The position numbers and the translations under genes are program-made. A DNA stretch of 64,000 nucleotides from Candidatus Omnitrophota bacterium (GTDB taxonomy: Bacteria > Omnitrophota > Gorgyraeia > Gygaellales > Profunditerraquicolaceae). The DNA lies in assembly GCA_030650425.1 (NCBI GenBank), contig JAUSED010000002.1, forward strand, positions 2,388 to 66,387, written 5' to 3'. The notes below the pieces were generated by a model that made no database searches, was not told the origin of the DNA, and worked only from the letters and a program-made list of their open reading frames with translations. Below are positions 18,336 to 63,961 of the stretch, piece by piece. Every line of letters starts with the position of its first letter. Position 1 is the stretch's first letter.

Positions 18336-19840
18336 ATTTTTCTTTCGCGGCCGGAATTGTCGGCTCCGGTAATTATCGTCGGGGTAATAAAGATAATCAA
18401 TTCTGTTTTTGTATTTTCCTTACTTCTGCTGCTAAACAACGGGCCAATTATAGGGGTCCGGGATAATCCGGGCAGGCCGTTTATGCTCCCGGTATCTTCA
18501 TTTTTCATCAGCCCGGTTATAATTAAGGTGGAGCCGTCTTTAACCTTGACCACTGTTTCTGATTGAGAAGTCTGAACTATGGGGACCTGCGAACCGGCAG
18601 CCGTAGTCAAGGTACTCGTTACGCTGCTAACCTCAGGCTTGATTTTCATCGTGATATACCCGTCGGCGCCGATAGTGGGAACAACGCTCAGTTTAACCCC
18701 TACGTCGATAAACTGAATACTCTCGGAAGTAATAGTGGTGGTTTCAGCCTGACTCTGGGATGCGGTTACGTAAGCTTGGCGGCTACCCACAAGAAGCTTT
18801 GCCTCTTCCTTGTTTACCACCACAATCCTCGGCCGGGTAAGCACCTTAGTCGTGCCGTATTGGTTAAGTAAATTCATCACCGCGTTAAAATTATCTCTGG
18901 TCAAGACGCCTAAATCTATCCTTCCGTAAGAAGATAGGGCTGGGCTCACCGCGAAATTACCCACCAAATCCAACTTTTGCCTTCCCGCGTCTTTAAAGAT
19001 TCCCTCCCACGATATGCCGCTTTGTAATTGATCATCGAGGGTAATCTCGATTATCTCTCCGCTAATCAACACCTGCCTGCTTTGTTCATCAAATTCTGCC
19101 ATTAGCTTTTTAATCCTGTTCACCCTTTGAGGCAGGTCAGTAACCATCACTTTAGCGCTCCTCTCGTCAACGATCACCTGTCCTACTCCCGGAGTAATCA
19201 AATCATTAATGTAGGTTTTGAGGTCGGCGAAACGCGCGTAGTTGATATCAAAGACCGCGGTCTCCAGCGGCTGATCCAGTTGTTTGATCGTATCCTCGAT
19301 TACGCGTACTGACTGCGGGGCATCGATGATGATAATCGTTCCGGTAGAATCATCGGAGATTATTTTGCCTACATCGGATTTTAAGTTTGAGATAACATTC
19401 ATCACATTCGCCGGCTTGGCATAGTTCAATTTGATCGTCTTGGTCTCCTTGCGCTCCCAGAATTTTTTGCCGTTGGCCTTTTCGTATTCGGCCCCGGTCA
19501 TTACTTTGACGATTTTACCTTTTATTTCATACGCTAAATCCTGCATCGTCGTAATCACATCCAAGGCGTCGGTAAAGGAAAGGTTATCCATAAAGACAGT
19601 AACCCTTCCTTTAACCTCGGGAGTGGTAATCACCGTCATCCCGCTTTTCTCCGAGAGCATTTTAAATAACTCATTAATTTCTACTCCTTTTAGATCCAGG
19701 GTAATCTTGCTCTCGCTTTTCTCTTCGCCTGTTTGCGGCTGAGCGGGCGCGCTATCCTGTTGAACATCTTCCGCGGATAAAGAACTAAGGCCCATCCAGA
19801 AAATAACCGTAAACGTAACCAATACAAATCCGGCTCTCAT
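18332..19840 (-). CDS. Secretin paralog (GspD/PilQ family), directly upstream of the TPR-secretin with a 4-bp overlap
   Basis: …VLTRPRIVVVNKEEAKLLVGSRQAYVTASQ…GLPGLSRTPIIGPLFSSRSKENTKTELIIFITPTII. The N-terminal domains are homologous to those of 16272-18335. Confidence 0.85.
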   Translation of the reverse strand: MRAGFVLVTFTVIFWMGLSSLSAEDVQQDSAPAQPQTGEEKSESKITLDLKGVEINELFKMLSEKSGMTVITTPEVKGRVTVFMDNLSFTDALDVITTMQDLAYEIKGKIVKVMTGAEYEKANGKKFWERKETKTIKLNYAKPANVMNVISNLKSDVGKIISDDSTGTIIIIDAPQSVRVIEDTIKQLDQPLETAVFDINYARFADLKTYINDLITPGVGQVIVDERSAKVMVTDLPQRVNRIKKLMAEFDEQSRQVLISGEIIEITLDDQLQSGISWEGIFKDAGRQKLDLVGNFAVSPALSSYGRIDLGVLTRDNFNAVMNLLNQYGTTKVLTRPRIVVVNKEEAKLLVGSRQAYVTASQSQAETTTITSESIQFIDVGVKLSVVPTIGADGYITMKIKPEVSSVTSTLTTAAGSQVPIVQTSQSETVVKVKDGSTLIITGLMKNEDTGSINGLPGLSRTPIIGPLFSSRSKENTKTELIIFITPTIITGADNSGRERKI

Positions 19841-31832: not shown

Positions 31833-33020
31833 CTATTCCAGGTAGGTATAAATCTTGCCTTTATAATTGCGCAGGACGTATTTCCCCTTTGCCTGCGAAA
31901 GGATGTAATTCGGGCCCACGGGGATCTTGCCTCCTCCCCCCGGTCCGTCAATAACATAGGTAGGGACAGCGTATCCGGAAGTATGGCCGCGTAATTTTTC
32001 CATAATGTTGATCCCGGCGGCAACCGGGGTCCTGAAATGCTGCGTGCCCCGAACCGGGTCGCACTGATAGATATAGTAAGGCCTAACCCTGACCTGCAAT
32101 AATTCATGCACCAGCTTTTTCATGATATAGGGACGGTCATTAACACCTTTTAAAAGCACAGTCTGGCTGCCCAAAGGAATTCCGGCATCCGCTAACATAT
32201 CGCAGGCAATTTTGCAACGCTTGGTTATTTCTTTCGGGTGATTAAAATGTATGCTCATCCAAATTGGCGAATATTTTTTAAGCATATTCGCCAATTTTTC
32301 CGTAATCCGCTGAGGGAGGGTCACCGGAACGCGCGTGCCCAGCCTTAAAAATTCCACATGCGATATAGAACGGATCCTTTCAAGCAGATTCTCTAATTCC
32401 TCATCTTCTAAAATTAACGGGTCTCCTCCGGATATAAGCACATCCCTTATTTTACGGTTAGCCTTGATATATTCTATAGCCCCGTCAAACCTGTTGGCGG
32501 ACGCGGGATTTTTCTCTTCGTGGTCGCCGACTAAACGCCTGCGCGTGCAATGGCGGCAGTACATCGCGCAATGATCGGTAGCTAATAATAAAACCCTGTC
32601 CGGATAACGGTGCACCAAGTGAGGCGCGGGAGAATCCCTGTCCTCCGCGCAAGGATCAGTCATTTCATGGGGAGTGATCATTGATTCCTGGATCACAGGG
32701 ACAGCCTGACGCCTAATCGGGCAATTGGGATCATCAGGATCTAATAACGTCCCCCAGTAAGGAGTGATCGCCATGGATAACCGTCCTTTGGCCTTATCTA
32801 TCCCCTTCTCTTCGTCGGGAGTTAAGGTAATAATCTGCGACAGGATATCCTTGACGCAGATTCTGTTTTTTATCTGCCAATGCCAATCTTCCCAATCTAA
32901 CGGGTTAACGTCTTTATAAATGCCGATCTGCTGGTAATCGCGCGGCTTCTTGGAAGTGCGGGGTAGCGGAGCGCTCTCCTGCTGCAATTTTTGATTTTCA
33001 ATTGCCTGAAGGCTCGTCAA
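31833..33020 (-). CDS. KamA-family radical SAM aminomutase (lysine 2,3-aminomutase-like)
   Basis: CAMYCRHCTRRR fits the CxxxCxxC motif, inside the conserved KamA core …GGDPLIL…. Confidence 0.8.
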   Translation of the reverse strand: MTSLQAIENQKLQQESAPLPRTSKKPRDYQQIGIYKDVNPLDWEDWHWQIKNRICVKDILSQIITLTPDEEKGIDKAKGRLSMAITPYWGTLLDPDDPNCPIRRQAVPVIQESMITPHEMTDPCAEDRDSPAPHLVHRYPDRVLLLATDHCAMYCRHCTRRRLVGDHEEKNPASANRFDGAIEYIKANRKIRDVLISGGDPLILEDEELENLLERIRSISHVEFLRLGTRVPVTLPQRITEKLANMLKKYSPIWMSIHFNHPKEITKRCKIACDMLADAGIPLGSQTVLLKGVNDRPYIMKKLVHELLQVRVRPYYIYQCDPVRGTQHFRTPVAAGINIMEKLRGHTSGYAVPTYVIDGPGGGGKIPVGPNYILSQAKGKYVLRNYKGKIYTYLE

Positions 33021-34018
33021 TTTAACCCTTTCCTTTCTGAGGCGCTCAAGATGATTGCCTCAATCAGATCTTCGTATTTCATCCCGGCGGCGTAAGCCAT
33101 AATCGGAAAATTCGATTCTTGAGGATCCAATCCCGGTAATGGATTTATCTCCAATACATATGGCACATTAAATTTATCCAAACGTATATCGGTACGCGAA
33201 ATATCCAGGCATCCTACCGCGCGGTGCGTCTTAAGCGCGACTTCTTTTACCCTTGCCTCAACATCCTTATCCAGGCGCGCCGGGCAATGAAAAACAGGCA
33301 CTAGCCCAAGCTCCCTGTTCCCCTGATACTCTTTCATCTTCCAGGAATAAAAATATTCTCCGCTATTTTTGCACTCCGAAAAATCTATCTCCAGAATCGG
33401 CAGGACCCGGGTCTTCCCGTTCTCTAATATCCCGACGGTAAGTTCTTTACCTTCGATAAATTCTTCGGCTAAGGCTTCCTGATGATAGGAACTCAGTGTC
33501 TCTTTCACTCTCTTAAAGAGATCATCGGCGTTATCCACGACATTCGCCTTGCTGATCCCTTTGGCCGAACCTTCGCAATTGGGTTTTACGATTAACGGAA
33601 ATTTTAACGCCGGATCTAATTCTTCGCTGCCTTTGGTAAAGAGCTGGAAATTCGGAGTGGGGATATTTTCCGCTTTTAAGATTTTTTTGGTAATGGTTTT
33701 ATTTAAGGCCAAGGCCAATGAAAAAGTATCCGAGCCTGTGTAGGGAATATTCAGGTAATCCAATATTGCCGGCACCTCTGACTCGCGGAATTTACCGGAT
33801 TGCCCTTCGGCAATATTAAAAACCATATCCACGGAATTTTTTCTGAAATAAGAGAAGAGTTTGGGATATTCCACGTCGATAGCTTCGACATGATGGCCTT
33901 TGGCCTTAATAGCGCTTACAATGGCGTTAATCGTCTCTTCGGAATCGTATTCCGAGAAATAATCCGCGGGCTTAGTTTCGTCTTTTTTCTTTAAATTGTA
34001 GGTTAATGCGATTTTCAT
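33017..34018 (-). CDS. ATP-grasp ligase of the D-alanine--D-alanine ligase family, paralog 1
   Basis: LIVKPNCEGSAKGISK, EFIEGKELTVGIL and YVLEINPLPGL align with the Ddl ATP-grasp core. The N-terminal domain is divergent. Confidence 0.7.
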   Translation of the reverse strand: MKIALTYNLKKKDETKPADYFSEYDSEETINAIVSAIKAKGHHVEAIDVEYPKLFSYFRKNSVDMVFNIAEGQSGKFRESEVPAILDYLNIPYTGSDTFSLALALNKTITKKILKAENIPTPNFQLFTKGSEELDPALKFPLIVKPNCEGSAKGISKANVVDNADDLFKRVKETLSSYHQEALAEEFIEGKELTVGILENGKTRVLPILEIDFSECKNSGEYFYSWKMKEYQGNRELGLVPVFHCPARLDKDVEARVKEVALKTHRAVGCLDISRTDIRLDKFNVPYVLEINPLPGLDPQESNFPIMAYAAGMKYEDLIEAIILSASERKGLN

Positions 34019-34024
34019 TCTATG

Positions 34025-35014
34025 TTAATTTAAATTATGCCTTTTAATCGCGCTATTCAATATTTTTCCGATCATCTGTTCGTAGGTAATCCCGGTATGC
34101 TCCGCTACCAGCTTGAAGACGTCTTCCGTAGAGAGCGAAGGCAAAGGATTAATCTCTAAAACATAAGGTTTCCCTTCACTATCTACGCGAAAATCAACCC
34201 GGCCAAAATCGCAGCAATCCACCGACTTATAAGTCCTTAAAGCGAGCTCGTCGATCTTTTTCTTTAAGTCTTGGGAAATTTTCGCGGGGCAGATGTATTC
34301 CAGCCTATCCGAAGTAATCCGGGCAAAGGTGTAAAATTTATCATTCAGTTTTAATTTTCCGTCGATCTTGATCTGGACAGCCGGCAACACTTCTACCGGG
34401 TCATTTCCGGCGAGCGCCACGGTGAATTCCTGTCCGGAGATAAATTCTTCGACCAATGCCGGTTGTTTATAGGCTGTGACGATATACTCAACCTGTTTAG
34501 CCAATTCTTCTCTGGTCTCTACCCGGGAACTTTCACTCAGGCCTTTGGATGAACCCTCGAAGCGCGGTTTGACGATAAGCGGAAATTTGTGATGATTAAT
34601 ATTGGCTAATTCGGATACGGAACTGACTTCAAAAAATTTCGGGGTGGGGATTTTTTCGGCGATAAAAATCTTTTTGGCCATTACCTTATCGAGGGTAAGG
34701 CCCAGGGTAAGCGCGTCTGATCCGACGAAAGGGATTCCGGCCATCTCAAGCAATATAGGAACCTGGGATTCACGATTCCTTCCAGTGAGGCCTTCGGAGA
34801 TATTGAAAACGATGTCCACTTTTAAAGAGGATAATTTTTCCAGAAGGTTACCGGCATTGCCAATTCTTTCCACCTTAAAACCATTTGATTCAATCGCGGA
34901 AGCTATAACATCAATAGTCGAAGGATGGTCAAATTCCGCGTTGGCATCCGCGGGATCTCCCTCCTTAAACTGATAATCTGACTTTAAATCGTAAGTTAAT
35001 CCTACTATTTTCAT
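34025..35014 (-). CDS. ATP-grasp ligase of the D-alanine--D-alanine ligase family, paralog 2
   Basis: LIVKPRFEGSSKGLSE, EFISGQEFTVALAGN and YVLEINPLPSL. It is paralogous to 33017-34018. Confidence 0.7.
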   Translation of the reverse strand: MKIVGLTYDLKSDYQFKEGDPADANAEFDHPSTIDVIASAIESNGFKVERIGNAGNLLEKLSSLKVDIVFNISEGLTGRNRESQVPILLEMAGIPFVGSDALTLGLTLDKVMAKKIFIAEKIPTPKFFEVSSVSELANINHHKFPLIVKPRFEGSSKGLSESSRVETREELAKQVEYIVTAYKQPALVEEFISGQEFTVALAGNDPVEVLPAVQIKIDGKLKLNDKFYTFARITSDRLEYICPAKISQDLKKKIDELALRTYKSVDCCDFGRVDFRVDSEGKPYVLEINPLPSLSTEDVFKLVAEHTGITYEQMIGKILNSAIKRHNLN

Positions 35015-35033: not shown

Positions 35034-35066
35034 CAAAAAAAGGCTCTTATTGTCCTAAAGAGCCCT
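35034..35066 (-). terminator. Rho-independent terminator (7-bp GC-rich stem plus U7) lying 20 nt upstream of the ATG of the Ddl-like gene
   Basis: The minus-strand RNA reads GGCUCUUUAGGACAAUAAGAGCC-UUUUUUU-GUAAGCGGAGCUAAAACUUU-AUG. A TTGACA-containing AT-rich promoter-like region lies further upstream at about 35120-35176. Confidence 0.6.
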
Positions 35067-35176
35067 TATCCACCTGCCTGATTTTTCCAATTTATCTTTC
35101 CTGCCTCCGAAAAATTTATCTAAGTGTTGTATTTATGATATTTTTTACCACAATATGTTATAGTTGTCAAGAAATT

Positions 35177-35914
35177 TCAACGAACAAACTCAACTTTTCC
35201 CCAGGTAATCAAATTATTTTTTAAAATAATCACTACCCCTAAAATGCCCTTAATTGAACGGGCGAAGTCCAGCGCCCGCTGCAGGTCCTCCTTGGAATTG
35301 ATCCGGTTGGCTGTCGCGGTAGCTACGCTATCGGCAAGGCTGGTGCTTTTAGAGAGGATAACCACGCTGTCCGCGCAGCCGAAACTTAAAGAATGGCCTA
35401 TTGTCCCTGAAGAAGTGCAGATGCCTAACGGCATATCTTTAGGCCTGATCTCTAATTGAAGTTTATTCCACAATTTAGAGCGTCCTACATATACGCCAAT
35501 CCTGCGGATCTTACGCGACTTTAAGAATATATCCCCGCCGTTTTCGACAATTACGTCTTTGTACCCGGCCTTAAGTAAATCCCTCCCCAGAAATTCGGCG
35601 ATTGCTCCGGCAACCGTGCTCATTGGCCCGACGTTAGCCCGCCCAGATTGTTCAGCCATCTCTTTCACGATAGGATCGGCATTCAATTCAATGGGAATAG
35701 GTTTTAACGCGGTAAGAAAACGATGATCCTTATTGATATAATTTTCAATTTCCCAGCGATAAGCGCGTATCCTCTCTTCGACAAATCCCGCTTTTAAAGG
35801 TTTATTAGTAAAAATCCGCAGGTCTGTTTCTTTAGCGGCTACGTGGGTAGAATAAAGGTCTTTGGCTCTAGCCCAATCACGGTAAAAACATTTCATGTAT
35901 CTGGATGATTTCAT
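35177..35914 (-). CDS. UPF0280-family protein (ApbE-like fold)
   Basis: The similarity covers the full length (…GPMSTVAGAIAEFLGRDLLKAGYKDVIVENGGDIFL…). The start is probably at MKCFYRDW. Confidence 0.45.
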   Translation of the reverse strand: MKSSRYMKCFYRDWARAKDLYSTHVAAKETDLRIFTNKPLKAGFVEERIRAYRWEIENYINKDHRFLTALKPIPIELNADPIVKEMAEQSGRANVGPMSTVAGAIAEFLGRDLLKAGYKDVIVENGGDIFLKSRKIRRIGVYVGRSKLWNKLQLEIRPKDMPLGICTSSGTIGHSLSFGCADSVVILSKSTSLADSVATATANRINSKEDLQRALDFARSIKGILGVVIILKNNLITWGKVEFVR

Positions 35915-35915
35915 C

Positions 35916-36995
35916 TTAACAAATCCTCGGCAGTGGTTCAGAAGTCAACATATCCAAAATGCGTTCAGTATTAAAAACAGTGCGTAAGATTACCCGGCCC
36001 GCGGGCTTTTTAACCACCGTCCCGATAATTTCTGCGTTTTTTCCCAAAGGATGCCTTCTGAGCAAACGAATAACTTTATCCGCTTCTTCAGGAACAACCA
36101 CTAACAAAGCCTTTCCCTCATTGGCAACATATAACGAGTCTATGCCTAGCAATTCAGAGACAGCCTTAATTTTTTTTGATACCGGTATATTCTTCTCGTC
36201 AATGAATATACCTAAATTAGAGGCTTCCGCTATTTCATTTAAGGTTGTCGCTATTCCTCCCCGCGTCGGGTCGCGCATAAATTTTATTCCTGTAGTTTTT
36301 TCCAGGAGCGGAAGGATTAAGCCGTTTAGGCTGGCGCAATCGCTTTTAATATTCAGCTTTAAATCCAATTCTTTTCTTTTCGCTAAAACGCTAAAGCCGT
36401 GTTCAGCAATATTACCGGTGATAATAATCTTGTCTTGGCAAGATATATTCTTTACCGAAAGTTTTCTGGATGTAAGCAACCTGCCTATGCCTGAGGTATT
36501 AATAAATAATTTATCCGCGGCCAGCTTCTCCACGACCTTGGTGTCTCCGGTGACCACCTTGACCGCTGCTGCTTTAGCGTAACTAGATATGGAATCGATT
36601 ATTTTTTCCAAAATACTAATCTCCAAGCCTTCCTCGATAATCAAAGCCAGAGAAATATATTCGGGAAGAGCGCCCAGCATAACCAAATCATTAATCGTTC
36701 CGGTTACGGCTAGTTTACCAATATCTCCTCCGGGGAAAAATAGCGGGCTGACCACGAAAGAATCGGTAGTAAAAGCTATTTTTTCTTGATAGTCGATAAC
36801 CGCGCTATCCGCGAGCTCACTTAGAATAGGGTTATCAAATTTCTTAAGCAGCGTGCTTTGAATAAAGTTATGGGTCAGCCTTCCGCCGCTGCCATGGCCA
36901 AGTAATATTTTAGTTGTTTTTTCCACCGGTCTTTTTGAAGAGGTCCAAGAACCTGTCTTCGTATTCCTTATAGACGTTCCACTTATCCAATTCAA
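35916..36995 (-). CDS. hypE: Hydrogenase maturation factor HypE (PurM-like carbamoyl dehydratase)
   Basis: The N-terminus …ILLGHGSGGRLTHNFIQSTLL… matches the HypE N-terminus. The C-terminus ends …SEPLPRIC, matching the HypE PRIC motif. The true start is probably downstream of the track start, because that start overlaps the PAC2 gene by 85 nt. Confidence 0.8.
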   Translation of the reverse strand: MNWISGTSIRNTKTGSWTSSKRPVEKTTKILLGHGSGGRLTHNFIQSTLLKKFDNPILSELADSAVIDYQEKIAFTTDSFVVSPLFFPGGDIGKLAVTGTINDLVMLGALPEYISLALIIEEGLEISILEKIIDSISSYAKAAAVKVVTGDTKVVEKLAADKLFINTSGIGRLLTSRKLSVKNISCQDKIIITGNIAEHGFSVLAKRKELDLKLNIKSDCASLNGLILPLLEKTTGIKFMRDPTRGGIATTLNEIAEASNLGIFIDEKNIPVSKKIKAVSELLGIDSLYVANEGKALLVVVPEEADKVIRLLRRHPLGKNAEIIGTVVKKPAGRVILRTVFNTERILDMLTSEPLPRIC

Positions 36996-37899
36996 CCTTT
37001 AACTCGCGGGCTTTCGATATATCCGTTTTTGCCTGAGTGAAAAACTGCTCGATCCTATCCTTAACCGAAACAGGGAGTTTAGTAAGTTGGTTCAAAGATT
37101 TTTTTATTTTCTCTATATCGTCTTCTCCAATCGGCCCGGCGCTAGCCCCCCCAAGCTTCAGATAATCCAGAAGCTTATTAATCTCTTCTTCCATCGTGTG
37201 CGCTTGAGTGTCGAGGCCGGATAAATCGATTTTAATCCCGGTAATCATAGCTAAGGCATTTAAAACAGCGGCGGAGGCTTTAGGATTTTCAATCTGGATG
37301 GTATAAAGCGGTATCTCACCTAAAAGGCAAAGTCCGCTCAATCCTTCTCTTTTGGCTATCCCCAAGAAAAGGCCGTTCATCCCGCTGATCTGGCCGTCAT
37401 TTAAACTATTGAGCTTTAATTTCTTAAGGTTATTACTGAGCTCTTCGGAAGTAGCAGCGAACCAAATTCCGGAATTCTGCGTGTGGTCAATGGTCTGAGG
37501 CATAGAAGCAAAACTGATCACCTTATCCGCCTTGAAACTCTTGGCAACTTGAATAATGATTTTGGAGTAACTTTCAGCCCGCGCTAAATCCGGTTGGGCG
37601 TTGCTGAGAAAGATAATCAGGTCATTCTTACCTTCTTTGTTCTTCCAGAAATAAAATTTACTCTCTGGAAGTTCTGAAGTACTCAATAATCCTTTTTTGA
37701 CCACACTCCCGGATAAGTAGAAGAACCCTTCGGGCTGTATGGAAGCAAATTCTTGGGCATTTAACTTCTCGACCAGATAAGAGGCGGCTTTAAAAGCTAC
37801 CTCCCCCATTCCCGGCCAGGCAACAACTAGATACGGTTTTTTTAAACGCGGACTTTTAGTAATTTTAATCCCTTCCATGATCATTGCTCCTTTATGCAA
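36910..37899 (-). CDS. PAC2-family protein (COG1938; ATP-grasp-related, 'proteasome assembly chaperone 2'-like)
   Basis: …KKPYLVVAWPGMGEVAFKAASYLVEKL… is a PAC2-like N-terminus. The similarity covers the full length. Confidence 0.5.
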   Translation of the reverse strand: MHKGAMIMEGIKITKSPRLKKPYLVVAWPGMGEVAFKAASYLVEKLNAQEFASIQPEGFFYLSGSVVKKGLLSTSELPESKFYFWKNKEGKNDLIIFLSNAQPDLARAESYSKIIIQVAKSFKADKVISFASMPQTIDHTQNSGIWFAATSEELSNNLKKLKLNSLNDGQISGMNGLFLGIAKREGLSGLCLLGEIPLYTIQIENPKASAAVLNALAMITGIKIDLSGLDTQAHTMEEEINKLLDYLKLGGASAGPIGEDDIEKIKKSLNQLTKLPVSVKDRIEQFFTQAKTDISKARELKVELDKWNVYKEYEDRFLDLFKKTGGKNN

Positions 37900-37906
37900 A
37901 AGATTG

Positions 37907-39031
37907 TTAAAATTGATAATTTACCAGAAAATTCTCCAAAACTTGAGCGCCTTTATACAAATTATCGATCTCTGCATACTCGTCGGAAATATGCGCGCAG
38001 CCGCTTGAGCCAAATCCTGAGGCAATCGCCGGAATATGCTTATCTTGAAAAAACGTAATCACGGTCGCGCCTTCCGAACCACACACGCGCGGCCTTACTC
38101 CGAAAACCCGCATTGCTTTTTTTAAAGAGCTGACTAAAGGGTGTTTTTCAGAGATGGTGTAAGCCTGCTGAATCCCCTGGATCTCTATTTTATACTTTTT
38201 GGCGCGTTTATTTAGGGCCGTTTTAAGCGCCTTCAACACATCTCCGGGTTTTGTCCCGGGTAAAAAACGAAAATCCAGTTCAAATTCGCACCAATCAGCC
38301 ACCACATTTACCTTATCCCCTCCTTTGATCGTTCCAACATTGACCGTAGGAGGTTTAAGATATTTATTTTGAGAGTAGGGAAATTTATATTCCTTGATCT
38401 CTTTGATCACTGACGAAGCCAGCTCAATGGCATTCACACCCAGATAAGGATAAGCGCCATGCGCTCGCTTACCCGCGATCTTAACCTTAAGATGTATAAG
38501 CCCCTTCTGTGTTACAACAATCTGGAAATCGTCGGCGTCTAAAACCAAGGCTGCGTCCGGTTTGATTATCTTTTTATCCAAGAGCGGAATTAAACCTAAA
38601 TCCGAACCGCACTCTTCATCCGCGGTGGCAGCAAGAATAAGGTTATAGCCCAAGTACTTTTTATCTTCGATGAGGCTGTTGACTGCCTCTATGGCGCAGG
38701 CGAGATTACCTTTGCAATCCGTCGCGCCTAAACCATAAATTTTATTCCCGCTAATTTTTGCCGCGAAAGGGCTAACCTTCCAGTTCTTCCCGGCGCAGAC
38801 AGTATCCAAATGCGGAGTAATCAATAATGAGCGTTGATTACCCGGCCTTTCTAAATAAGCGATCAGATTAGAACGCTTCTTTCTGAATTCATAGATACTT
38901 ACCCGCAGCCCTAATTTCTGAAGATATCCTCGCGCAAAATTAGCCAAGGCTGATTCATCGCCAGGCGGATTTTCGGAATTTATCTGGATTAGCTTACGGG
39001 TAAGCTTGATAAGGCGGACTTTATTAATCAT
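37907..39031 (-). CDS. M20-family metallopeptidase/deacylase (ArgE/DapE-like)
   Basis: …GLGATDCKGNLA…DEECGS…HGAYPYLGVNAI… carries the M20 metal-binding signatures. Confidence 0.75.
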   Translation of the reverse strand: MINKVRLIKLTRKLIQINSENPPGDESALANFARGYLQKLGLRVSIYEFRKKRSNLIAYLERPGNQRSLLITPHLDTVCAGKNWKVSPFAAKISGNKIYGLGATDCKGNLACAIEAVNSLIEDKKYLGYNLILAATADEECGSDLGLIPLLDKKIIKPDAALVLDADDFQIVVTQKGLIHLKVKIAGKRAHGAYPYLGVNAIELASSVIKEIKEYKFPYSQNKYLKPPTVNVGTIKGGDKVNVVADWCEFELDFRFLPGTKPGDVLKALKTALNKRAKKYKIEIQGIQQAYTISEKHPLVSSLKKAMRVFGVRPRVCGSEGATVITFFQDKHIPAIASGFGSSGCAHISDEYAEIDNLYKGAQVLENFLVNYQF

Positions 39032-39063
39032 CTCAATTTACTTGCCTATATTATAGCAGAATC

Positions 39064-39702
39064 TCAGGAAAAATCCAGCGGACAGCTGGAACATTTGGGT
39101 TTTGACTTAAGGCAAAAATTTTTTCCTAATGCCACTAAGAGCGCGTGGTATTCGTTAAATAGTTTCGCGTCATTTTCTAAATTAAGCATGAATAATGCTT
39201 GGGCTTGGCCATAAGCAGCGTCATTGCTTAACAGCTTGTGCCGCGAGAATATTCTTTTAGTATAGGCGTCGATCACAAAAACAGGCTTGTTTAAGGCGTA
39301 AAGCAATATCGAATCGGCTGTTTCCGGCCCGATCCCTTTTACCAAAAGGAGCTCTTGGCGTAAAGTATTCAATTTAGGTTTGGAAAATTTTTTTACATTT
39401 CCTTCATAATTATGAATAAAGAACCTGAGAAATGCTTTTAAGCGCTTAGTTTTGATATTGTAGTAACCGGACGGACGAATAAGCCGGGCAAGCAAAGCAT
39501 CCGGCAAATTATAAAGTTTACGCGGCTCTAATACTTTATGCTTTTTTAAATTAGCTATCGCCTTTTCGACATTTTGCCAATTGGTGCTTTGAGTAAGTAT
39601 CGCTCCGACCATCACCTCAAAAGCTGAATCAGCCGGCCACCAAGCTTGCGCGCCGAAATGAGCATATAGCTTACGGTAGATTGCGTTTAATCTTTTTCTC
39701 AC
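39064..39702 (-). CDS. HhH-GPD DNA glycosylase related to endonuclease III (MagIII/COG2231-like)
   Basis: The helix-hairpin-helix reads LLLVKGIGPETADSILLYAL, followed by an Asp in VIDAYTKRIF. The C-terminal cysteine cluster reads CLKSKPKCSSCPL. Confidence 0.65.
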   Translation of the reverse strand: MRKRLNAIYRKLYAHFGAQAWWPADSAFEVMVGAILTQSTNWQNVEKAIANLKKHKVLEPRKLYNLPDALLARLIRPSGYYNIKTKRLKAFLRFFIHNYEGNVKKFSKPKLNTLRQELLLVKGIGPETADSILLYALNKPVFVIDAYTKRIFSRHKLLSNDAAYGQAQALFMLNLENDAKLFNEYHALLVALGKNFCLKSKPKCSSCPLDFS

Positions 39703-40794
39703 TTAGCGCCGGAATTTATAATACACATTACAGGATCCTTCAGTAGTAACCATACATGGCCCGACAGGATTATCCGGCTGGCAGGCTTTAGCAAATAAGG
39801 GGCAATCCGATGGAAGAATCAGCCCTTTTAAAACATCGCCGCAGCGGCATTGTTTTATTGGTTTTATTACGACCTTATTACTACGAAGAGCAAAAACCCG
39901 GTTAGTATCGAATCTTGAATATGTATCTTTTAACTTCAGCCCGCTATCCGGTATAATCCCAAACCCGCGCCAATCTGAGTCCGTTCTCTCAAATACCCGG
40001 CTTATGGCTCTCTTTGCCCGCGGATTTCCCCCCGGAGTAACGATGCGCGTATACTGGTTAGCAACATAAGGTTTATTTAAGCTGATCTGTTCGAGGATAA
40101 TGCATATCCCTTCCAGAATATCTACAGGTTCAAATCCCGCGACGCAACAAGCTGTTTTATATTTTTTAGGGATAAACGCGTAATCTTTGGTTCCGATAAT
40201 CGCCGAGACATGCCCCGGGCAAAGAAACCCGTCGATTTTAAGCCTTTTATCCGCTAAGAGATATTTCATTGCCGGCGGGATTAATTTAAGCGCGGAAAAA
40301 AAAGAGAGGTTCTTTAACCTTTCTTTTTGACCGGCAAGTATACTTAAGGCAATCGTAGGAGCAGTGGTTTCAAAACCCACCGCTAAAAAAATTACTTTTT
40401 TATCCGGATTGGCGAGGGCGATAGTTACGGAATCTAAAGGAGAATAGATTACCCGTATATTGCCGAACTTAGTTTTCTCTTTTTCCAAAGATGAGAAGGT
40501 TCCGGGTATGCGCAGCATATCGCCGAAAGTAACGATAAGCGCGTCTTTATCCTTAGCCAATTCAATGGCGCTATCAATGTACCCTTGAGAGCTCACGCAT
40601 ACCGGGCAGCCCGGCCCGGAGATCAACCTTATATTTTTGGGAAGCAGCTCCTTAAGCCCAAAGCGGCAAAAGTTTTGCGTGTGCGTGCCGCAGACCTCCA
40701 TTATATTGATATTATTTCCGGGGTTTAAATCCATAATCTTAGCGCTGATTTTTTCAACCAGCTTAGGATTACGGAATTCGTCAATGTATTTCAT
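39703..40794 (-). CDS. hypD: Hydrogenase maturation factor HypD
   Basis: The conserved motifs are CGTHTQ, GPGCPVC, GFETTAP and CPGHVSAI. Confidence 0.85.
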   Translation of the reverse strand: MKYIDEFRNPKLVEKISAKIMDLNPGNNINIMEVCGTHTQNFCRFGLKELLPKNIRLISGPGCPVCVSSQGYIDSAIELAKDKDALIVTFGDMLRIPGTFSSLEKEKTKFGNIRVIYSPLDSVTIALANPDKKVIFLAVGFETTAPTIALSILAGQKERLKNLSFFSALKLIPPAMKYLLADKRLKIDGFLCPGHVSAIIGTKDYAFIPKKYKTACCVAGFEPVDILEGICIILEQISLNKPYVANQYTRIVTPGGNPRAKRAISRVFERTDSDWRGFGIIPDSGLKLKDTYSRFDTNRVFALRSNKVVIKPIKQCRCGDVLKGLILPSDCPLFAKACQPDNPVGPCMVTTEGSCNVYYKFRR

Positions 40795-40993
40795 TGGCTA
40801 TCTTTAAGGTTTCTTTGGCTCTCTGCGGATCAACTTTTTCAATAGCAAAACCCGCATGAACCAATACATAATCCCCGATTTTTAGGTCGGGAAGCATCTG
40901 AATGTTGATCTTGCGTAAAAGCCTTCCGCACTCAACTTCGGCAAAATCATCGTTAATCTTTTTGACTTTCATCGGTATACCTAAACACATCAT
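40781..40993 (-). CDS. hypC: Hydrogenase maturation factor HypC (HupF/HypC family)
   Basis: The N-terminus MMCLGIPMKV matches the MC(L/I)(G/A)(I/V)P signature. The length is about 70 aa. It overlaps hypD by 14 nt. Confidence 0.85.
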   Translation of the reverse strand: MMCLGIPMKVKKINDDFAEVECGRLLRKINIQMLPDLKIGDYVLVHAGFAIEKVDPQRAKETLKIANEIH

Positions 40994-42099
40994 TAACCTC
41001 CATACCCCGCGATTACAGCCTGGCCTAAAGAAATACCCGCGTCATTGCAAGGCAAATATTGATGCGTAAAAACCTGAAAACCTTCTTTGTTTAATAAACC
41101 CGAGCTCATCTTGAGTAAAACTTTATTCTGAAAAACTCCTCCGGATAAAGCGATTTTATTTGTCCTATGTTCTTTTCTTAAAATCAGCGCTATTTTCACC
41201 ATCATTTCAGCTACGCCTTGATGGAAACGCCAAGCAATCTTTTCCCGAGATATCTTTAACTTTAAATCTTTGATAATTTGTTTAAGAATATTAGTCGGAT
41301 CTAAAATATACCCGCCTTTATCCTTCCTTATCACAGCAGGGGACACTTTCCTACGCGCGTTTACTATTTGTTGGAAAGTGTCCCCTGCTGTTGACGCCTC
41401 GGCTAATTTTTCCAGCTCAATTGCCAGCTCTGCTTCAAACGCCGCTTTCCTTTTACCCAAAACAAGGCTTCCTGCCGCGTCAAAAAGCCTGCCCATACTA
41501 CTGGCTAAAGGAGAATTGATCCCTGATTTATATATTTTATTTAAAATCTGTTTTTTATCTACGCTCTGATCAAAATTAAGCCAAGCTGCCAGCGTTCTCC
41601 ACGGTTCGAATATCGCCCGCTCTCCTCCAACCAGAGGAATTTCTTTTAAATGCGCTAAGCGCGAGAATTTTTGATAATCACAGAGCAAAACCTCTGCTCC
41701 CCAAATAGTATTATCCGTTCCTAAACCAGTCCCGTCAAAAGCCAAGCCGATTATTTTTTGGTTTTCCAGCCCATTTTCCGCCATGCAAGAAGCGATATGC
41801 GCATGGTGATGTTGAACATGTAGTATATAGTACTTAACAGGCAGGGATTCGCTAAATTTAGTTGACTGATACTCAGGGTGTAAATCGCAGGCGATAATCT
41901 TAGGATGTTTTTTAAGGAAATGTTTTGCGTCTTTCTCAAAAGCCGCTAAATCCTTAGGCCTGCTTAGGTCCGCATGCAGCGGGCTAAGATAAGCGCCATC
42001 CCCTCGCGCGAAACAAATAGTATTCTTGGCCTGGCCGCCTAAGGCCAAAACCGTATTCTTTAATTTAAAAGGCAGCCTAACTTCTAGTGTTTTCATCAA
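40993..42099 (-). CDS. HypF-like carbamoyltransferase consisting only of the C-terminal Kae1/YgjD-like domain. The acylphosphatase, Zn-finger and YrdC domains are absent.
   Basis: The C-terminus KIALSGGVFQNKVLLK…PCNDAGISLGQAVIAG and the HHHAHI motif match the HypF C-terminal domain. The ORF is only 368 aa. An in-frame inverted-repeat insertion at 41334-41390 encodes STAGDTFQQIVNARRKVSPAV. Confidence 0.7.
   Translation of the reverse strand: MMKTLEVRLPFKLKNTVLALGGQAKNTICFARGDGAYLSPLHADLSRPKDLAAFEKDAKHFLKKHPKIIACDLHPEYQSTKFSESLPVKYYILHVQHHHAHIASCMAENGLENQKIIGLAFDGTGLGTDNTIWGAEVLLCDYQKFSRLAHLKEIPLVGGERAIFEPWRTLAAWLNFDQSVDKKQILNKIYKSGINSPLASSMGRLFDAAGSLVLGKRKAAFEAELAIELEKLAEASTAGDTFQQIVNARRKVSPAVIRKDKGGYILDPTNILKQIIKDLKLKISREKIAWRFHQGVAEMMVKIALILRKEHRTNKIALSGGVFQNKVLLKMSSGLLNKEGFQVFTHQYLPCNDAGISLGQAVIAGYGG
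41334..41390. repeat. Inverted-repeat element CAGCAGGGGACACTTTCC…GGAAAGTGTCCCCTGCTG, in frame in the hypF-like gene
   Basis: cagcaggggacactttcctacgcgcgtttactatttgttggaaagtgtcccctgctg. Confidence 0.85.
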
Positions 42100-42916
42100 T
42101 CAGCTCGATATGCAGGATATTGTCGACTCTAAACGAACGTTCTTGGCGCTTCAGGCAGCAGTAGCCGATTAAATAATCACGGCTATTCTCCCGCTTAATT
42201 TCCTTTGGAACAACCTGACGCTTAGTGACCTGCGCGCTGGAAGCGGAAATATATTCTATTTTGAGCTGGCCCTTTAAATTCATCGCCTCCTGAATCTGGG
42301 CAATCTTTTGGTTATTGATGTTTTCCAAAAGAACCGGATCAATACTGAATAAACCGACAAATTTATGGAAGTCGGATATGCCTTTAGCTTTAAGCATATC
42401 CTTTAACTTATAAAATACGGCTAAAGTAAGCTCAACATCCGAAAATGCGCGGTGTTGCTGTTGAATGGTTATCCCCAGCGCATCCGCCACAAACCAAAGC
42501 GCGTAGCGTCCTAATCCCGGCATCAGGCGCTTAGCCATCTTCAGCGCGTCGATAATTAAAATGTCTTTTAACGCGGGAAGCCCCAAAATTTTAAATTCAT
42601 TATTCAAGAATTCCAAATCAAAACCCGCGTTGTAGGAACAAAGGCAGCTTCCTTGAATAAAATCGATAAATTTAGGGATTACCTCTTCAGGCAGAGCCGC
42701 ATCTTTAAGCATTTCCGCGCTGATTTTATTCACCGCAAAGGCTGCTTCGGATACAGGCCTGCCCGGATTTACCAGCGCCTGAAACTCGGATATCTTTTCC
42801 AAACCTTTAAATTTTAAAGCCGCAAGCTCAACGATCCTGTCTCCCGAAGAAGGGTCAAGGCCGGTAGTTTCGGTGTCAAAAATTACAAATTCTATATCAT
42901 CGATATTTCTGTTCAT
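42077..42916 (-). CDS. DnaQ-like 3'-5' exonuclease (DEDDh; DNA polymerase III epsilon family) with a C-terminal extension
   Basis: Exo I reads FVIFDTETTGLD, Exo II reads YNAGFDLEFL and Exo III reads HRAFSDVELT. Confidence 0.75.
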   Translation of the reverse strand: MNRNIDDIEFVIFDTETTGLDPSSGDRIVELAALKFKGLEKISEFQALVNPGRPVSEAAFAVNKISAEMLKDAALPEEVIPKFIDFIQGSCLCSYNAGFDLEFLNNEFKILGLPALKDILIIDALKMAKRLMPGLGRYALWFVADALGITIQQQHRAFSDVELTLAVFYKLKDMLKAKGISDFHKFVGLFSIDPVLLENINNQKIAQIQEAMNLKGQLKIEYISASSAQVTKRQVVPKEIKRENSRDYLIGYCCLKRQERSFRVDNILHIELIDENTRS

Positions 42917-42979
42917 ATTCTACATTCTCTGTAGGGACAGAACATTGTTCTGTCCCTACACCATTTGGTGTATCCATGG

Positions 42980-43044
42980 GCAGTAGGGGACACTTTCCGT
43001 CAGGGCTATCAGGAACCTCTTGAAAGGAAAGTGTCCCCTACTGC
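42980..43044. repeat. Inverted-repeat element GCAGTAGGGGACACTTTCC…GGAAAGTGTCCCCTACTGC (19-bp arms). Its right half supplies the last 13 codons and the stop of the DUF2156-like gene.
   Basis: gcagtaggggacactttccgtcagggctatcaggaacctcttgaaaggaaagtgtcccctactgc. Confidence 0.85.
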
Positions 43045-43950
43045 GGATACCTCAGCCACTCTTCTTCGCGCAATATACGCCGGTACTAATCTCACCGGAT
43101 GATATGATAATTTTACTTTTTTTAAGTTTTCTAATCCGGAATCATCCATAATATTTATAAATTTGTAATTTTTGAGTTCTTGGGTAAAAGAGCGAAAGAT
43201 AAATTGCGCCAAGCCCTTGATCGATAAATCCGTGATTTCGTACAAAATACAAAATGTCTCCGGGTTCAGAGCGAAACCAAAGGTAAAACCTTTTATTTCT
43301 TTATTGATCCTGACTACTCCGCCCTGAAAGCCTAAAGTCGAATAATTTTCCAACGCTTCATTCAAAGAGATCCTGCTATCATCCAACATCCCCTGATAGA
43401 GATGATCAGGGCTTGCGGATTGGCGCTGGCCCTGCCAGAGATCATAGAGCTTAAGACAATCACCCTGATCACTTAAAGTAAACTTCGCATATCTAAAATC
43501 ATAATGCTTGATAAAATAATTGTAACTTGAGCGCTTGGATTTAAATTTGCTTCCTTTAAGCCGCGCTAAATCCGCGCGGCTACAAAGATAATCATAGGAT
43601 TTTAACTCGCAGCTAAGCCCTAAACCTTTATAAAAACTTAAGTCCTGCTCCTCAATATTTTCGATGTGGGCGAATTCCGGGTTTTTATTCAATCGATCCA
43701 GGATACTCAAGGCTTCACAAGCAACTTGCGGATTATTCGCCTTACTTAATGGAGAAAGATACAAGAAAGAACCAATTTTATCTTGAAAAAATACACAGAG
43801 GCTCTTTTCTATCTCCAGCCAACGGATATCGAAAAACTTTCTCCAGATGTAAATATTCGCGAAAGCATAAACCGATAATTCGTGCTTTTCTAGAGATAAA
43901 TATTTATCAAATAACTTTTTATCGCTGAGCTTTAATTTATTCAGGCGCAT
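43009..43950 (-). CDS. DUF2156-like protein (related to the C-terminal domain of lysyl-phosphatidylglycerol synthase; FemABX/GNAT-like fold)
   Basis: …ELSVYAFANIYIWRKFF… plus the similarity covering the full length. The C-terminal …VSAVGDTFLSRGS* is contributed by the inverted-repeat element. Confidence 0.4.
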   Translation of the reverse strand: MRLNKLKLSDKKLFDKYLSLEKHELSVYAFANIYIWRKFFDIRWLEIEKSLCVFFQDKIGSFLYLSPLSKANNPQVACEALSILDRLNKNPEFAHIENIEEQDLSFYKGLGLSCELKSYDYLCSRADLARLKGSKFKSKRSSYNYFIKHYDFRYAKFTLSDQGDCLKLYDLWQGQRQSASPDHLYQGMLDDSRISLNEALENYSTLGFQGGVVRINKEIKGFTFGFALNPETFCILYEITDLSIKGLAQFIFRSFTQELKNYKFINIMDDSGLENLKKVKLSYHPVRLVPAYIARRRVAEVSAVGDTFLSRGS

Positions 43951-44443
43951 CAGGAAGCTTAAGCTCGATCAGATCCAAAACATCTTCATAAGCTTGGATG
44001 ATTTGGGGATTATCCTTTAACATCTCCAGCTGTTTAGGAGAATTAAGATAGGCGGACAAATAATCAGCGTATTCCTTAAATTCTTTTTTGCGCATATTCT
44101 CTTTCACATAAGGACAATTTAAGTCAACAGTAAGCACCACTTTCTTATCGCGCAGATTGATCAGGAACGGATATAGCTGGCATTCAAATGGCCGCGTCTG
44201 GTAAATTTTACATTTATTGCTTCCGCACTCAAAAAAAGCGCAAACAAAGCCTTCACCTTTAGGGCTAGGAACAGGACGAATCTTTCTCTGCATATTGATA
44301 TACGCCGGAGGGATATCCTTGTCGATTAAATCCTGAACCTCTTCCTCCAATAAGCATGGCGTCCAAACCGAATCCATATCTTTGAACCTGCAGCAACCTT
44401 GGCATTGAAGACAGGCTTCCTGTGGAACAAATTGCTTGATCAT
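43937..44443 (-). CDS. YkgJ-family cysteine-cluster protein (UPF0153; CxxCxxCC Zn/Fe-chelating domain)
   Basis: CLQCQGCCRF…C…CAFF…C…C. Confidence 0.7.
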   Translation of the reverse strand: MIKQFVPQEACLQCQGCCRFKDMDSVWTPCLLEEEVQDLIDKDIPPAYINMQRKIRPVPSPKGEGFVCAFFECGSNKCKIYQTRPFECQLYPFLINLRDKKVVLTVDLNCPYVKENMRKKEFKEYADYLSAYLNSPKQLEMLKDNPQIIQAYEDVLDLIELKLPDAPE

Positions 44444-44760
44444 TTAACAATACTCCCTAATTTTAAGGGCCTTTCCGGGCTAATGATCACTATCCCGGAT
44501 TCATCAGAACCGGCTAAAACCATTCCCTGACTTTCCACGCCTCTTAAAAGCGCCGGATCCAGATTATCCACTACCACTACATATTTCCCCAAAAGCGCTT
44601 CGCGGGTATAAAAACTCTTGATCCCGGCAACTACCTGCTTGGTTTTATCCCCCAAATCCAAGGTCAAAACCAGAAGCTTATCCGCGTTCGGATGTTCGCT
44701 AACTTCTTTAATTTGAGCAACTTTTAGTTCTAATTTCCTGAAATCTTCAATCGTAGCCAT
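44440..44760 (-). CDS. tRNA-binding protein (CsaA/Trbp111/EMAP-type OB fold)
   Basis: LKVAQIKEVSEHPNADKLLVLTLDLGDKTKQVVAGI…VVVVDNL…GVESQGMVLA. Confidence 0.8.
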   Translation of the reverse strand: MATIEDFRKLELKVAQIKEVSEHPNADKLLVLTLDLGDKTKQVVAGIKSFYTREALLGKYVVVVDNLDPALLRGVESQGMVLAGSDESGIVIISPERPLKLGSIVK

Positions 44761-49337: not shown

Positions 49338-50915
49338 TTACCTTTTATGATATTCCTGCAAAGACTTAACTGATAACTTATGTTTTGTCAAGGATTCAAG
49401 CCCATTCACTGTCGCCTCGGCGCCTGAAATAGTTGTGGTGTAAGGGATATTGTATAAAATTACATGCGAGCGTATCTTCACCTCATCCTGACGGGGTATT
49501 CTTCCGGAAGGGGTATTAATGACCATCTGGATTTTCCCGCTCTTCATTAAGTCCAGAATATTGGGCGTGCCTTCGGCAATCTTAGGTAAAACTTTAACTT
49601 TAATTTTACCTTGCGCCAAGACCGCCGCTGTACCGGAAGTCGCGTAAATATGAAAACCTAACTTTTCCAATTTCTTAGCTATGGAGAGGATATTTTTCTT
49701 GTCGTTATCGCGTACCGAAATAAAAACGTTCCCTTTGGCCGGAAGTTTTTGCCCGGCAGCCAATTGGCTTTTGATGTAAGCCAAACCAAAATCCTTGTCA
49801 ATACCCATCACCTCGCCGGTAGATTTCATCTCCGGCCCCAGAATTACATCTACACCGGAAAAACGGTTAAAGGGAAGAACCGATTCTTTGACCGATATAT
49901 GTTTAGGGATTATTTCCCGAGTCAGGCCGAGGTTCTTTAATTTCTTACCCAACATGACCTTAGTCGCAAACTTGGCTAGCGGCACTCCTATAGCCTTAGA
50001 AACAAAAGGTACGGTCCGCGACGCCCGAGGGTTAACTTCCAAAACATAAACCTTATCCTCTTGTATAGCATACTGCACATTCATCAGGCCGACGATATGC
50101 AACTCTTTGGCCATCTTATAGCTAGCTTCCCTTACCTTATCTAATAAATCTTTAGAGAGGCTATAGGCAGGGATGGACATAGCTGAGTCGCCGGAATGGA
50201 TCCCTGCCTCTTCGATATGCTCCATAATCCCGCCGATAACAAAATCTTTTCCGTCGCCGATAAGGTCGACATCTACTTCGGTCGCGTCCTCCAAAAACTT
50301 ATCGATTAAGACCGGATGCTCACCGGATACTTCCGCTGCTTCTTTAATAAATTTCTCTAAAACTTTCTCTTCATAGACAATTTCCATCGCCCTGCCGCCT
50401 AAAACATAAGAAGGCCTGACTAAAACCGGATAACCTATCCTTCGGGCTACCTCTTCGGCTTCTTTGAAATTAAAGGCTGTGCCATTCTCCGGTTGTAAAA
50501 GATTTAATTTATGGAGCATCTGCTTAAAACGTTTTCTGTCCTCGGCAATATCAATACTATCCGCCGAAGTCCCTAAAAGATTTACTCCGGCTTTCAATAA
50601 AGGAACGGCCAAGTTAAGAGGCGTCTGGCCGCCGAATTGCACGATTACACCGAATGGCTTTTCCAGTTCAATAATGTTCATAATATCTTCGAAGGTAAGC
50701 GGCTCAAAATAAAGCCTGTCAGAGGTATCGTAATCCGTAGAAACTGTTTCAGGATTGCAATTGACCATGATGCTCTCAATTCTTTCTTCCTTTAAGGCGT
50801 AGGAGGCATGACAACAGCAATAATCAAATTCAATCCCCTGCCCAATGCGATTCGGGCCTCCGCCTAAAATAATCACTTTCTTATTTTTACTAGGTTTTAC
50901 TTCATTAATTTCCAT
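49338..50915 (-). CDS. carB: Carbamoyl-phosphate synthase large subunit, C-terminal half only (second ATP-grasp plus MGS-like domain), as a split carB
   Basis: …[26 protein letters not shown]… aligns with the second half of CarB. The MGS-like C-terminus reads …[13 protein letters not shown]…[11 protein letters not shown]… The ORF is 525 aa against about 1070 aa for a full CarB. Confidence 0.8.

Positions 50916-60698: not shown

Positions 60699-63961
<3,263 letters not shown>

Follow-up and report, generated by a model that had tools for sequence, protein, structure and literature searches.

Can a HypF protein reduced to its Kae1-like carbamoyl-transfer domain still help to mature [NiFe]-hydrogenases, and do the other genes packed in among its partners belong to the same system? 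These questions are raised by a gene unit at 35177–42916, with all of its genes on the minus strand, in a 64,000-nucleotide (nt) stretch of the Candidatus Omnitrophota contig JAUSED010000002.1 (this whole stretch is here referred to as "the window"). In the direction of transcription the unit reads DnaQ-WYL, hypF', hypC, hypD, HhH-GPD, M20, PAC2, hypE and UPF0280 (Table 1), where hypF' is the short hypF gene. Pfam and NCBIfam searches bore out the gene assignments, the minus-strand placement and the interleaved genes of the original prediction, which had been made from the sequence alone. We consider that the unit is probably a genuine [NiFe]-hydrogenase maturation set, hypF'CDE, of Omnitrophota, in which HypF has been cut down to the Kae1-like domain and the interleaved genes are bystanders.

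Domain content and conservation of the short HypF

The product of hypF' is 368 amino acids (aa) long when read from a TTG codon, while the NCBI call is 367 aa from an ATG at 42096. Pfam finds HypF_C at residues 14–108 (E 9.7e-28), HypF_C_2 at residues 118–360 (E 8e-72) and nothing else, and in the 741-position model TIGR00143 the protein aligns to positions 382–740 only, with a score of 260.5 that is below the cut-off of 466.1. There was no Pfam match to the N-terminal acylphosphatase domain in HypF', and a tblastn search of the window with residues 1–95 of E. coli HypF returned nothing. The two zinc-finger motifs and the YrdC-like domain were likewise not found in HypF' with Pfam and TIGR00143 or in the window with tblastn. 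Moreover, since the DnaQ-WYL gene overlaps the start of hypF' by 20 nt, no N-terminal domains are hidden upstream of it.

By sequence, the solved structure closest to HypF' is residues 394–746 of Caldanaerobacter HypF (3VTH), at 38% identity. When the AlphaFold model of HypF' (pLDDT 88) is laid over 3VTI, a complex of HypE and HypF, it fits the Kae1 half of HypF, the TM-score being 0.87 by the query and 0.44 by the target, and the next-best fold matches after HypF are TsaD and Kae1 structures. The motifs HHHAHI, ALSGGVFQN and NDAGISLGQA, named in the original prediction, are all readable in the translation. Residues H97, H98, H101, D122 and D353 are invariant across 20 homologues, and the Kae1-like (ASKHA) domain of HypF' carries the metal site formed by HHxAH and Asp. 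Pfam, TIGR00143 and the structure match therefore agree with the original view that this HypF-like gene of 368 aa encodes the Kae1-like domain only, and of the models proposed for checking it, HypF_C (together with HypF_C_2) matched HypF', while the M20 gene was confirmed by its Pfam/NCBIfam domains as ArgE/DapE-type.

HypC, HypD and HypE are canonical by the curated models. HypD matches PF01924 (E 1.6e-142) and TIGR00075 (score 449, cut-off 193), and its translation shows CPVC, GFETT and CPGHVS; HypC scores 75.9 with TIGR00074, the cut-off being 48; HypE reaches 432 with TIGR02124 against a cut-off of 252 and ends in PRIC. All three lie above the equivalog or subfamily cut-offs with their signature motifs present, as their recognition by motif had led one to expect. 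In hypC, translation probably begins at the second ATG (40990), so that the protein opens with Met-Cys. The match of HypE to TIGR02124 begins at residue 29 of the open reading frame (ORF), which is likely over-extended; a start at the GTG at 36926 would give a protein of 336 aa, and HypE proteins in relatives have 331–342 aa.

We then looked at how widely the short form is shared. All of the 120 best database relatives of HypF' are 353–417 aa long and have the identical two Pfam domains, and wherever a match among them bears an organism name, that name is Omnitrophota or Omnitrophica. Among the best 150 representatives at 50% identity in a HMMER search, 35 are 340–430 aa long; 17 of these 35 group with the window protein in a single clade, and several of the remaining ones are evidently pieces of long HypF. 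HypF' keeps its length, its start and its catalytic residues in more than 100 clusters at 90% identity and, at 50% identity, in at least 17. A neighbour-joining tree built from the Kae1 domains, which as a distance tree is indicative, shows the short forms as monophyletic, with 40–45% identity between sublineages, and the full-length HypF proteins closest to them come from loci labelled Atribacterota and Caldiserica. Scans of genomes and of metagenomes gave at least 600 matching stretches each, and the sets of loci used here (numbered with L) are samples of the matches listed; the metagenome scan contributed one usable short-HypF locus, L103. Among the genome-scan matches listed, all HypF loci labelled Omnitrophota are short. 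Hence, on sequence evidence, the short HypF is a deep conserved clade, mainly of Candidatus Omnitrophota, and not an artefact, and the HypF of Omnitrophota appears to have lost its acylphosphatase, zinc-finger and YrdC-like domains ancestrally, a long time ago.

A hypF gene in a different state was seen in a Chloroflexia locus (L081:4754–7091), where a full-length hypF is broken into three consecutive ORFs with acylphosphatase, zinc-finger/YrdC and YrdC/Kae1 pieces, respectively. In the same locus hypD and hypE are broken up as well. Either decay or poor sequencing accounts for its state, which contrasts with the intact short form.

Hydrogenase genes beside the short HypF in relatives

Pfam was run on those minus-strand ORFs that lie wholly inside the 64-kb window and have 150 aa or more (a set to which the giant ORF at 1–9622 does not belong), and the window was searched by tblastn with E. 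coli and Omnitrophota reference proteins. Neither search detected a subunit of a hydrogenase, HypA, HypB, an acylphosphatase, a zinc finger of the HypF kind or YrdC in the window. Nor did they reveal the [NiFe]-hydrogenase endopeptidase or the large and small subunits, and within this scope the original statement that the 64 kb contain no hydrogenase structural genes stands.

In relatives, the short HypF is encoded next to hydrogenase and maturation genes. Among the more distant relatives in the short clade, the genes hypF', hypC, hypD, hypE and hypA are contiguous in this order in L009, L010, L044 and L103, and L061 has the order hypF'-C-D-E, without hypA between hypE and UPF0280. After hypA, L010 and L044 contain UPF0280, a NIL-ferredoxin gene and then, about 1.5 kb downstream, a hydrogenase operon. 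This operon has genes for Fer4_22, an NAD-binding iron-sulfur protein, Fer4_11, subunits that resemble NuoH, NuoB and NuoC, and a large subunit in which both CxxC motifs are present (RICGICSTSH and DPCYCCTER); judged by these features, it is a bona fide Mbh-type group 4 [NiFe]-hydrogenase. The same operon starts directly after UPF0280 and NIL-ferredoxin in L070, and L097 has the order hycI-hypA-hypF'. On other Omnitrophota contigs the full Mbh-type operon extends with Mrp-type antiporter subunits and has hycI as its last gene. This agrees with the group 4g membrane-bound hydrogenases that have been reported in Omnitrophota genomes (PMC10066038). Three Omnitrophota loci (L086, L088 and L182) have Mbh-type operons with hycI and no hyp genes within 10 kb. 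Because Omnitrophota operons often lack hyp genes within this distance, the absence of a hydrogenase from the 64-kb window is unremarkable.

We also searched for hyp genes and a large subunit that share a contig in closer relatives. A UPF0280 protein (P0188) that is 70% identical to the window protein and has the gene order of L084/L085, and a large subunit (P0357), are both assigned to a longest contig of exactly 295,182 bp. A close relative with the L084/L085 order thus probably has its hyp genes and large subunit P0357 on one contig. Two other pairings were rejected. HypF' P0116 and large subunit P0268 had seemed to share one 9,379-bp contig, on which no hydrogenase is present, and large subunit P0352, whose name had pointed to the genome bin of L002, comes from another assembly (PCRL, not PCRK).

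Carbamoyl supply, UPF0280 and alternative readings

If the unit works as we propose, HypF' would S-carbamoylate the C-terminal Cys of HypE, a step predicted from the canonical pathway and compatible with the PRIC tail. Its donor would most likely be carbamoyl-AMP made elsewhere or, less likely, carbamoyl phosphate and ATP used directly. HypE, with ATP, would dehydrate the carbamoyl group to thiocyanate, and the cyanide would be handed to the iron on HypC-HypD, where Fe(CN)2CO would be assembled. The latter would then be inserted in a membrane hydrogenase of the Mbh type (group 4), namely in its large subunit; this hydrogenase is presumably encoded elsewhere in the genome, with hypA and hycI. 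HypA would insert the nickel and HycI would trim the C-terminus of the large subunit. The canonical pathway underlying these proposed steps is summarised in PMC12134894.

A split HypF that would receive carbamoyl-AMP from a separate enzyme, the first option of the original prediction, is our leading idea and agrees with what has been written on the truncated HypF1 of Cupriavidus necator (PMC9100943), and by analogy with the TsaC/TsaD pair a trans-acting YrdC-type enzyme would be the obvious model. A carbamoyl phosphate source for HypF' is plausible because the window encodes a pyrimidine operon (pyrR, pyrB, pyrC ... pyrK, pyrD, pyrF) with a half-size CarB, which is of relevance since carbamoyl phosphate is the HypF substrate. 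This CarB (49338–50915, minus strand) is the C-terminal half only, its 525 aa corresponding to positions 544–1058 of a 1058-position model; CarA and the N-terminal half of CarB were not seen in the window.

The last gene of the unit belongs to the UPF0280/COG2122 family. The protein matches NF003323 (E 4.6e-76) with a score of 255.5, just below the equivalog cut-off of 271; the Pfam family of an identical protein (P0121) is PF27030 (AbpE_bact), and 2O34 is a solved homologue (E 1.6e-24). The gene begins 1 nt past the stop codon of hypE. UPF0280 comes right after hypE or hypA in all eight short-HypF contexts in which the position is visible (the window, L084/L085, L009, L010, L044, L061, L070 and L103). 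Within 10 kb of full-length HypF it was found at none of about 145 loci from many phyla, among the loci listed, and these include L102, which has the same hydrogenase operon type. Five loci (L010, L044, L061, L070 and L103) have, after UPF0280, a NIL-ferredoxin gene whose product of 135–142 aa contains a NIL domain and two [4Fe-4S] motifs (for example in the stretch L010:13880–15032). A tblastn search found no NIL-ferredoxin in the 64-kb window, and DUF39 was seen in none of the loci scanned. COG2122 is genetically tied to homocysteine synthesis and sulfide assimilation, along with DUF39 and NIL-ferredoxin proteins. The link of UPF0280 to the hyp genes is one of position only.

A gene of about 344 aa with a weak likeness to methionine synthase lies directly before hypF' in L009, L010, L044 and L103 (L010:8883–9917); in L061 a gene like it, of 339 aa, is found some 2 kb upstream. 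As a candidate for YrdC or DUF39, the gene of L009, L010 and L044 was rejected, having a weak methionine-synthase-like match only; biotin genes are found further upstream of it. The hyp cluster is thus flanked by two out of three components known for the DUF39 homocysteine pathway, DUF39 itself not being among them. The 478-aa gene right after hypF' in L097 was also considered as a partner and rejected, since it is of the Schlafen/AlbA_2 type, like the window gene at 12765–14153.

Three other readings of the unit were weighed. It seems hardly credible to us that hypF' is the remnant of a gene in decay, that it is a spare paralogue beside a full-length hypF, or that it arose through an error of assembly or a frameshift, although Cupriavidus necator does have a truncated HypF1 beside full-length HypF2 and a third copy, hypF3, and broken hypF genes such as the three ORFs of L081 exist. 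Length, start and catalytic residues are conserved throughout the clusters mentioned above, the overlap with DnaQ-WYL leaves no space for the lost domains, and in relatives the short gene fills the sole hypF position in otherwise complete hyp clusters; the Omnitrophota-labelled loci, among the matches listed, have no other form. The conservation, the monophyly and the invariant His and Asp residues therefore argue against assembly error, pseudogene and recent decay, and the original concern that the ORF might be a fragment truncated in assembly was not borne out. A ligand derived from cyanide or carbamoyl and destined for a target other than [NiFe]-hydrogenase, an option that the original prediction had offered, is very unlikely. 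The window, with no hydrogenase, hypA or hypB in the Pfam scans of its minus-strand ORFs and in tblastn, and with its hyp genes dispersed among unrelated genes, would fit such a target. However, the same short-HypF clade adjoins group 4 [NiFe]-hydrogenase, hypA and hycI in relatives, HypC, HypD and HypE pass equivalog-level models with all signature motifs kept, hydrogenase operons are commonly distant from hyp genes in Omnitrophota, and a close relative probably has the genes of the hyp unit and a large subunit on one contig.

The third reading makes UPF0280, with NIL-ferredoxin in other sublineages, a working partner of the short HypF that would supply activated carbamoyl, or sulfur or electrons to HypD/HypE; we regard it as rather unlikely. 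The adjacency, which holds in eight of eight contexts, spans sublineages that are only 40–45% identical in HypF' and whose other neighbours are reshuffled, and it is not shared by the full-length-HypF loci listed, L102 included. The spacing between hypE or hypA and UPF0280 is mostly tight (a 1-nt gap in the window and overlaps of 7–17 nt elsewhere), DUF39, the usual partner of UPF0280, was not seen nearby in the loci scanned, and according to a review it is not settled what gives electrons to HypD or where the CO ligand comes from under anaerobic conditions (PMC12134894). On the other hand, the short forms are a single clade whose labelled loci are mostly Omnitrophota, and the association with UPF0280 cannot be told apart from a gene order passed on by descent. 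For COG2122, genetic work already supports a part in making homocysteine and assimilating sulfide, and the window UPF0280 shares conserved motifs with DVU1097 of D. vulgaris, which points to the same chemistry. The distant MetE-like gene upstream of hypF' in the same loci suggests that the hyp genes lie inside methionine-related genes, the HypF1 operon of C. necator has no UPF0280, and 293 nt separate hypE and UPF0280 in L084/L085. The adjacency may only mean that the hyp genes lie within methionine- or sulfur-related genes. Likewise, it is quite doubtful that UPF0280 (plus NIL-ferredoxin in some sublineages) was recruited as a maturation accessory after the loss of the N-terminal part of HypF, as a supplier of activated carbamoyl or of sulfur or electrons to HypE/HypD.

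Several points weigh against the reading that we prefer, in which hypF'CDE carries out ordinary [NiFe]-hydrogenase maturation. It leaves the strict adjacency of UPF0280 and hypE unexplained, and no stand-alone YrdC, acylphosphatase or zinc-finger candidate donor was found in the window or beside any short-HypF locus. The evidence on this genome comes from a 64-kb window, and its own hydrogenase, like the absence of a full-length hypF and of a separate gene for the N-terminal half, is presumed. The co-residence of P0188 and P0357 is deduced only from the equal length of 295,182 bp, and the like match at 9,379 bp turned out to be coincidental. Finally, HypF1 of C. necator is inactive in E. coli lacking hypF (PMC5350229), so a Kae1-only HypF is not proven to work unaided.

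Neighbouring genes and comparison with known systems

The coordinates of the unit are given in Table 1. Nearly all genes between 9.6 and 63.8 kb of the window are carried by the minus strand. The genes of the unit are tightly packed, as originally noted, with the difference that the junctions range from a 20-nt overlap up to a 32-nt gap and not over overlaps of 1 to 14 nt. A terminator-like hairpin lies within the 162-nt gap 3' of UPF0280. A scan for promoter and terminator consensus sequences gave counts no different from those in shuffled sequence, and it missed this hairpin, probably because the loop exceeds the 8-nt limit of the scan.

Table 1. Genes of the hyp unit, in order of transcription, and the hairpin downstream of it (positions in the window)
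Feature	Position	Strand	Remarks
DnaQ-type 3'-5' exonuclease + WYL fusion	42077–42916	minus	Pfam RNase_T + WYL; upstream neighbour of hypF'
hypF' (Kae1-like carbamoyl-transfer domain alone)	40993–42099	minus	Pfam HypF_C + HypF_C_2; 368 aa from TTG
hypC	40781–40993	minus	TIGR00074; MMCLGIP start
hypD	39703–40794	minus	PF01924, TIGR00075
HhH-GPD glycosylase	39064–39702	minus	Pfam/NCBIfam domains
ArgE/DapE-type M20 deacylase	37907–39031	minus	Pfam/NCBIfam domains
PAC2-family protein	36910–37899	minus	Pfam/NCBIfam domains
hypE	35916–36926 (from likely GTG)	minus	TIGR02124; AIRS + AIRS_C; mechanical ORF reaches 36995
UPF0280/COG2122 (ApbE-like)	35177–35914	minus	NF003323, PF27030, 2O34; last gene of the unit
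Terminator-like hairpin	35035–35071	minus	10-bp stem, 9-nt loop, then 7 T; folded −12.3 kcal/mol

The genes interleaved with hypF'CDE differ between sublineages. Upstream of hypF', a block of tRNA_bind, CxxCxxCC, LPG_synthase_C and DnaQ-WYL genes (42077–44760 in the window) is kept down to about 43% HypF' identity (L091, L093, L095 and L100) and is absent from L009, L010, L044, L061 and L070; PabB and aminotransferase genes are sometimes inserted ahead of hypF'. The order HhH-GPD, M20, PAC2 between hypD and hypE recurs, with extra insertions, in L001, L002, L004, L084 and L095, and the extra genes inserted in relatives encode PabB, an aminotransferase, a TPR-transglutaminase protein, a PilZ protein and a HAD hydrolase. 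L070 has another insert between hypD and hypE (radical SAM, PEBP and NadE), and hypF'CDE is contiguous, without interleaved genes, in L009, L010, L044, L061 and L103. Because the conserved order accepts varying insertions at the hypD|hypE junction, and none in other sublineages, the interleaved genes do not look like a functional module. We judge HhH-GPD, M20, PAC2 and DnaQ-WYL to be unrelated, lineage-specific housekeeping genes, bystanders in a streamlined co-directional array. The gene order proposed for comparison is thus conserved in close relatives, while the interleaved genes are missing from the clusters of other sublineages, and the hint in the original prediction that they belong to the system is unsupported, except for UPF0280, which that prediction had not set apart from the others.

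After UPF0280, close relatives have two D-Ala-D-Ala-ligase-like genes, a lysine-2,3-aminomutase-like gene, EF-G, YchF, PurH and others. In the window, the region immediately downstream of UPF0280 (31833–35014, minus strand; also L084:10995–14215) carries a tandem pair of D-Ala-D-Ala-ligase-like ATP-grasp genes together with a radical SAM gene of the lysine-2,3-aminomutase-like kind. The conservation of this ATP-grasp/aminomutase trio in relatives suggests a small pathway of its own, possibly based on beta-lysine.

Some features elsewhere on the minus strand of the window were also recorded. At 1–9622 there is an ORF of at least 3,207 codons that runs off the start of the window, with a G+C content of about 50% compared with about 43% in the rest of the window, and it is adjoined by a 991-aa DUF2341 protein (9612–12587). 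Two secretin genes (687 and 502 aa) stand side by side at 16272–19840, with C-terminal TPR repeats in the first, and are followed by genes for an AAA_22 ATPase and a PKD-domain protein. GyrB (60699–63770; 1,023 aa) contains an intein splicing domain at residues 471–653, between the GyrB and Toprim domains.

For annotation, these results mean that proteins of about 360 aa with this architecture are real HypF orthologues and not fragments, and that dense packing in Omnitrophota arrays is no sign of a functional link. The adjacency of hypE and UPF0280 is a concrete candidate that can be tested. How a HypF of this kind gets its carbamoyl-AMP has lacked an explanation since HypF1 of C. necator became known, and HypF1 makes a difficult object of study, as full-length copies accompany it. 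A deep clade of anaerobes with small genomes and the short form as the apparent only HypF, in hyp clusters that are complete in other respects and adjoin a group 4 hydrogenase, would, if this is true, be a cleaner natural system than C. necator. It could reveal if HypF can do without the acylphosphatase, zinc-finger and YrdC domains, and by what they have been replaced.

Among known systems, the UPF0280 protein of the window can be compared with the COG2122 proteins of the DUF39 pathway (DvMF_0044 and DVU1097 of D. vulgaris, the latter being PDB 2O34, and MA1715 of M. acetivorans). It belongs to the same family with the motifs kept, and NIL-ferredoxin, another component of that pathway, follows UPF0280 in relatives. 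Unlike these proteins, UPF0280 of the short-HypF clade is positionally tied to hypE or hypA, no DUF39 was seen nearby, and the window is without NIL-ferredoxin. With canonical HypF, as in E. coli and Caldanaerobacter subterraneus (3VTH, 3VTI), HypF' has in common the Kae1-like fold, the HHxAH and Asp motifs and the hypCDE partners. However, canonical HypF also has the acylphosphatase, zinc-finger and YrdC-like domains that hydrolyse carbamoyl phosphate and form carbamoyl-AMP, and HypF' is without them. In the t6A pathway a YrdC-type enzyme, TsaC/Sua5, makes the acyl-adenylate and a separate Kae1-type protein, TsaD/Kae1, uses it. The TsaC/TsaD pair is a natural model for a Kae1-only HypF supplied in trans, though the substrates differ (threonylcarbamoyl-AMP and tRNA).

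The closest parallel is HypF1 of C. necator (Ralstonia eutropha) H16, encoded on the megaplasmid pHG1 in the operon hypA1B1F1CDEX. This protein has been described as "unusually truncated" (PMC5350229, PMC9100943), with one of the three canonical HypF domains, and is said to depend, in all likelihood, on carbamoyl adenylate (PMC9100943). Its architecture, too, consists of HypF_C and HypF_C_2 only, with 394 aa against the 368 aa of HypF'; the two proteins align end to end at 33% identity, and both genes lie directly upstream of hypC-hypD. In the native host, hypF1 and hypF2 are reportedly interchangeable. C. necator is an aerobe with full-length HypF copies besides HypF1, whereas the Omnitrophota form appears to be the sole HypF in its hyp clusters and goes with a group 4 hydrogenase. 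In the distance tree, which is indicative, HypF1 groups with E. coli and other proteobacterial HypF, apart from the short clade of Omnitrophota, and the truncation in Omnitrophota is for this reason taken to be independent of that in HypF1. A Kae1-only HypF was thus already known from C. necator, and what is new, as far as sequence comparison goes, is its independently evolved and clade-wide occurrence.

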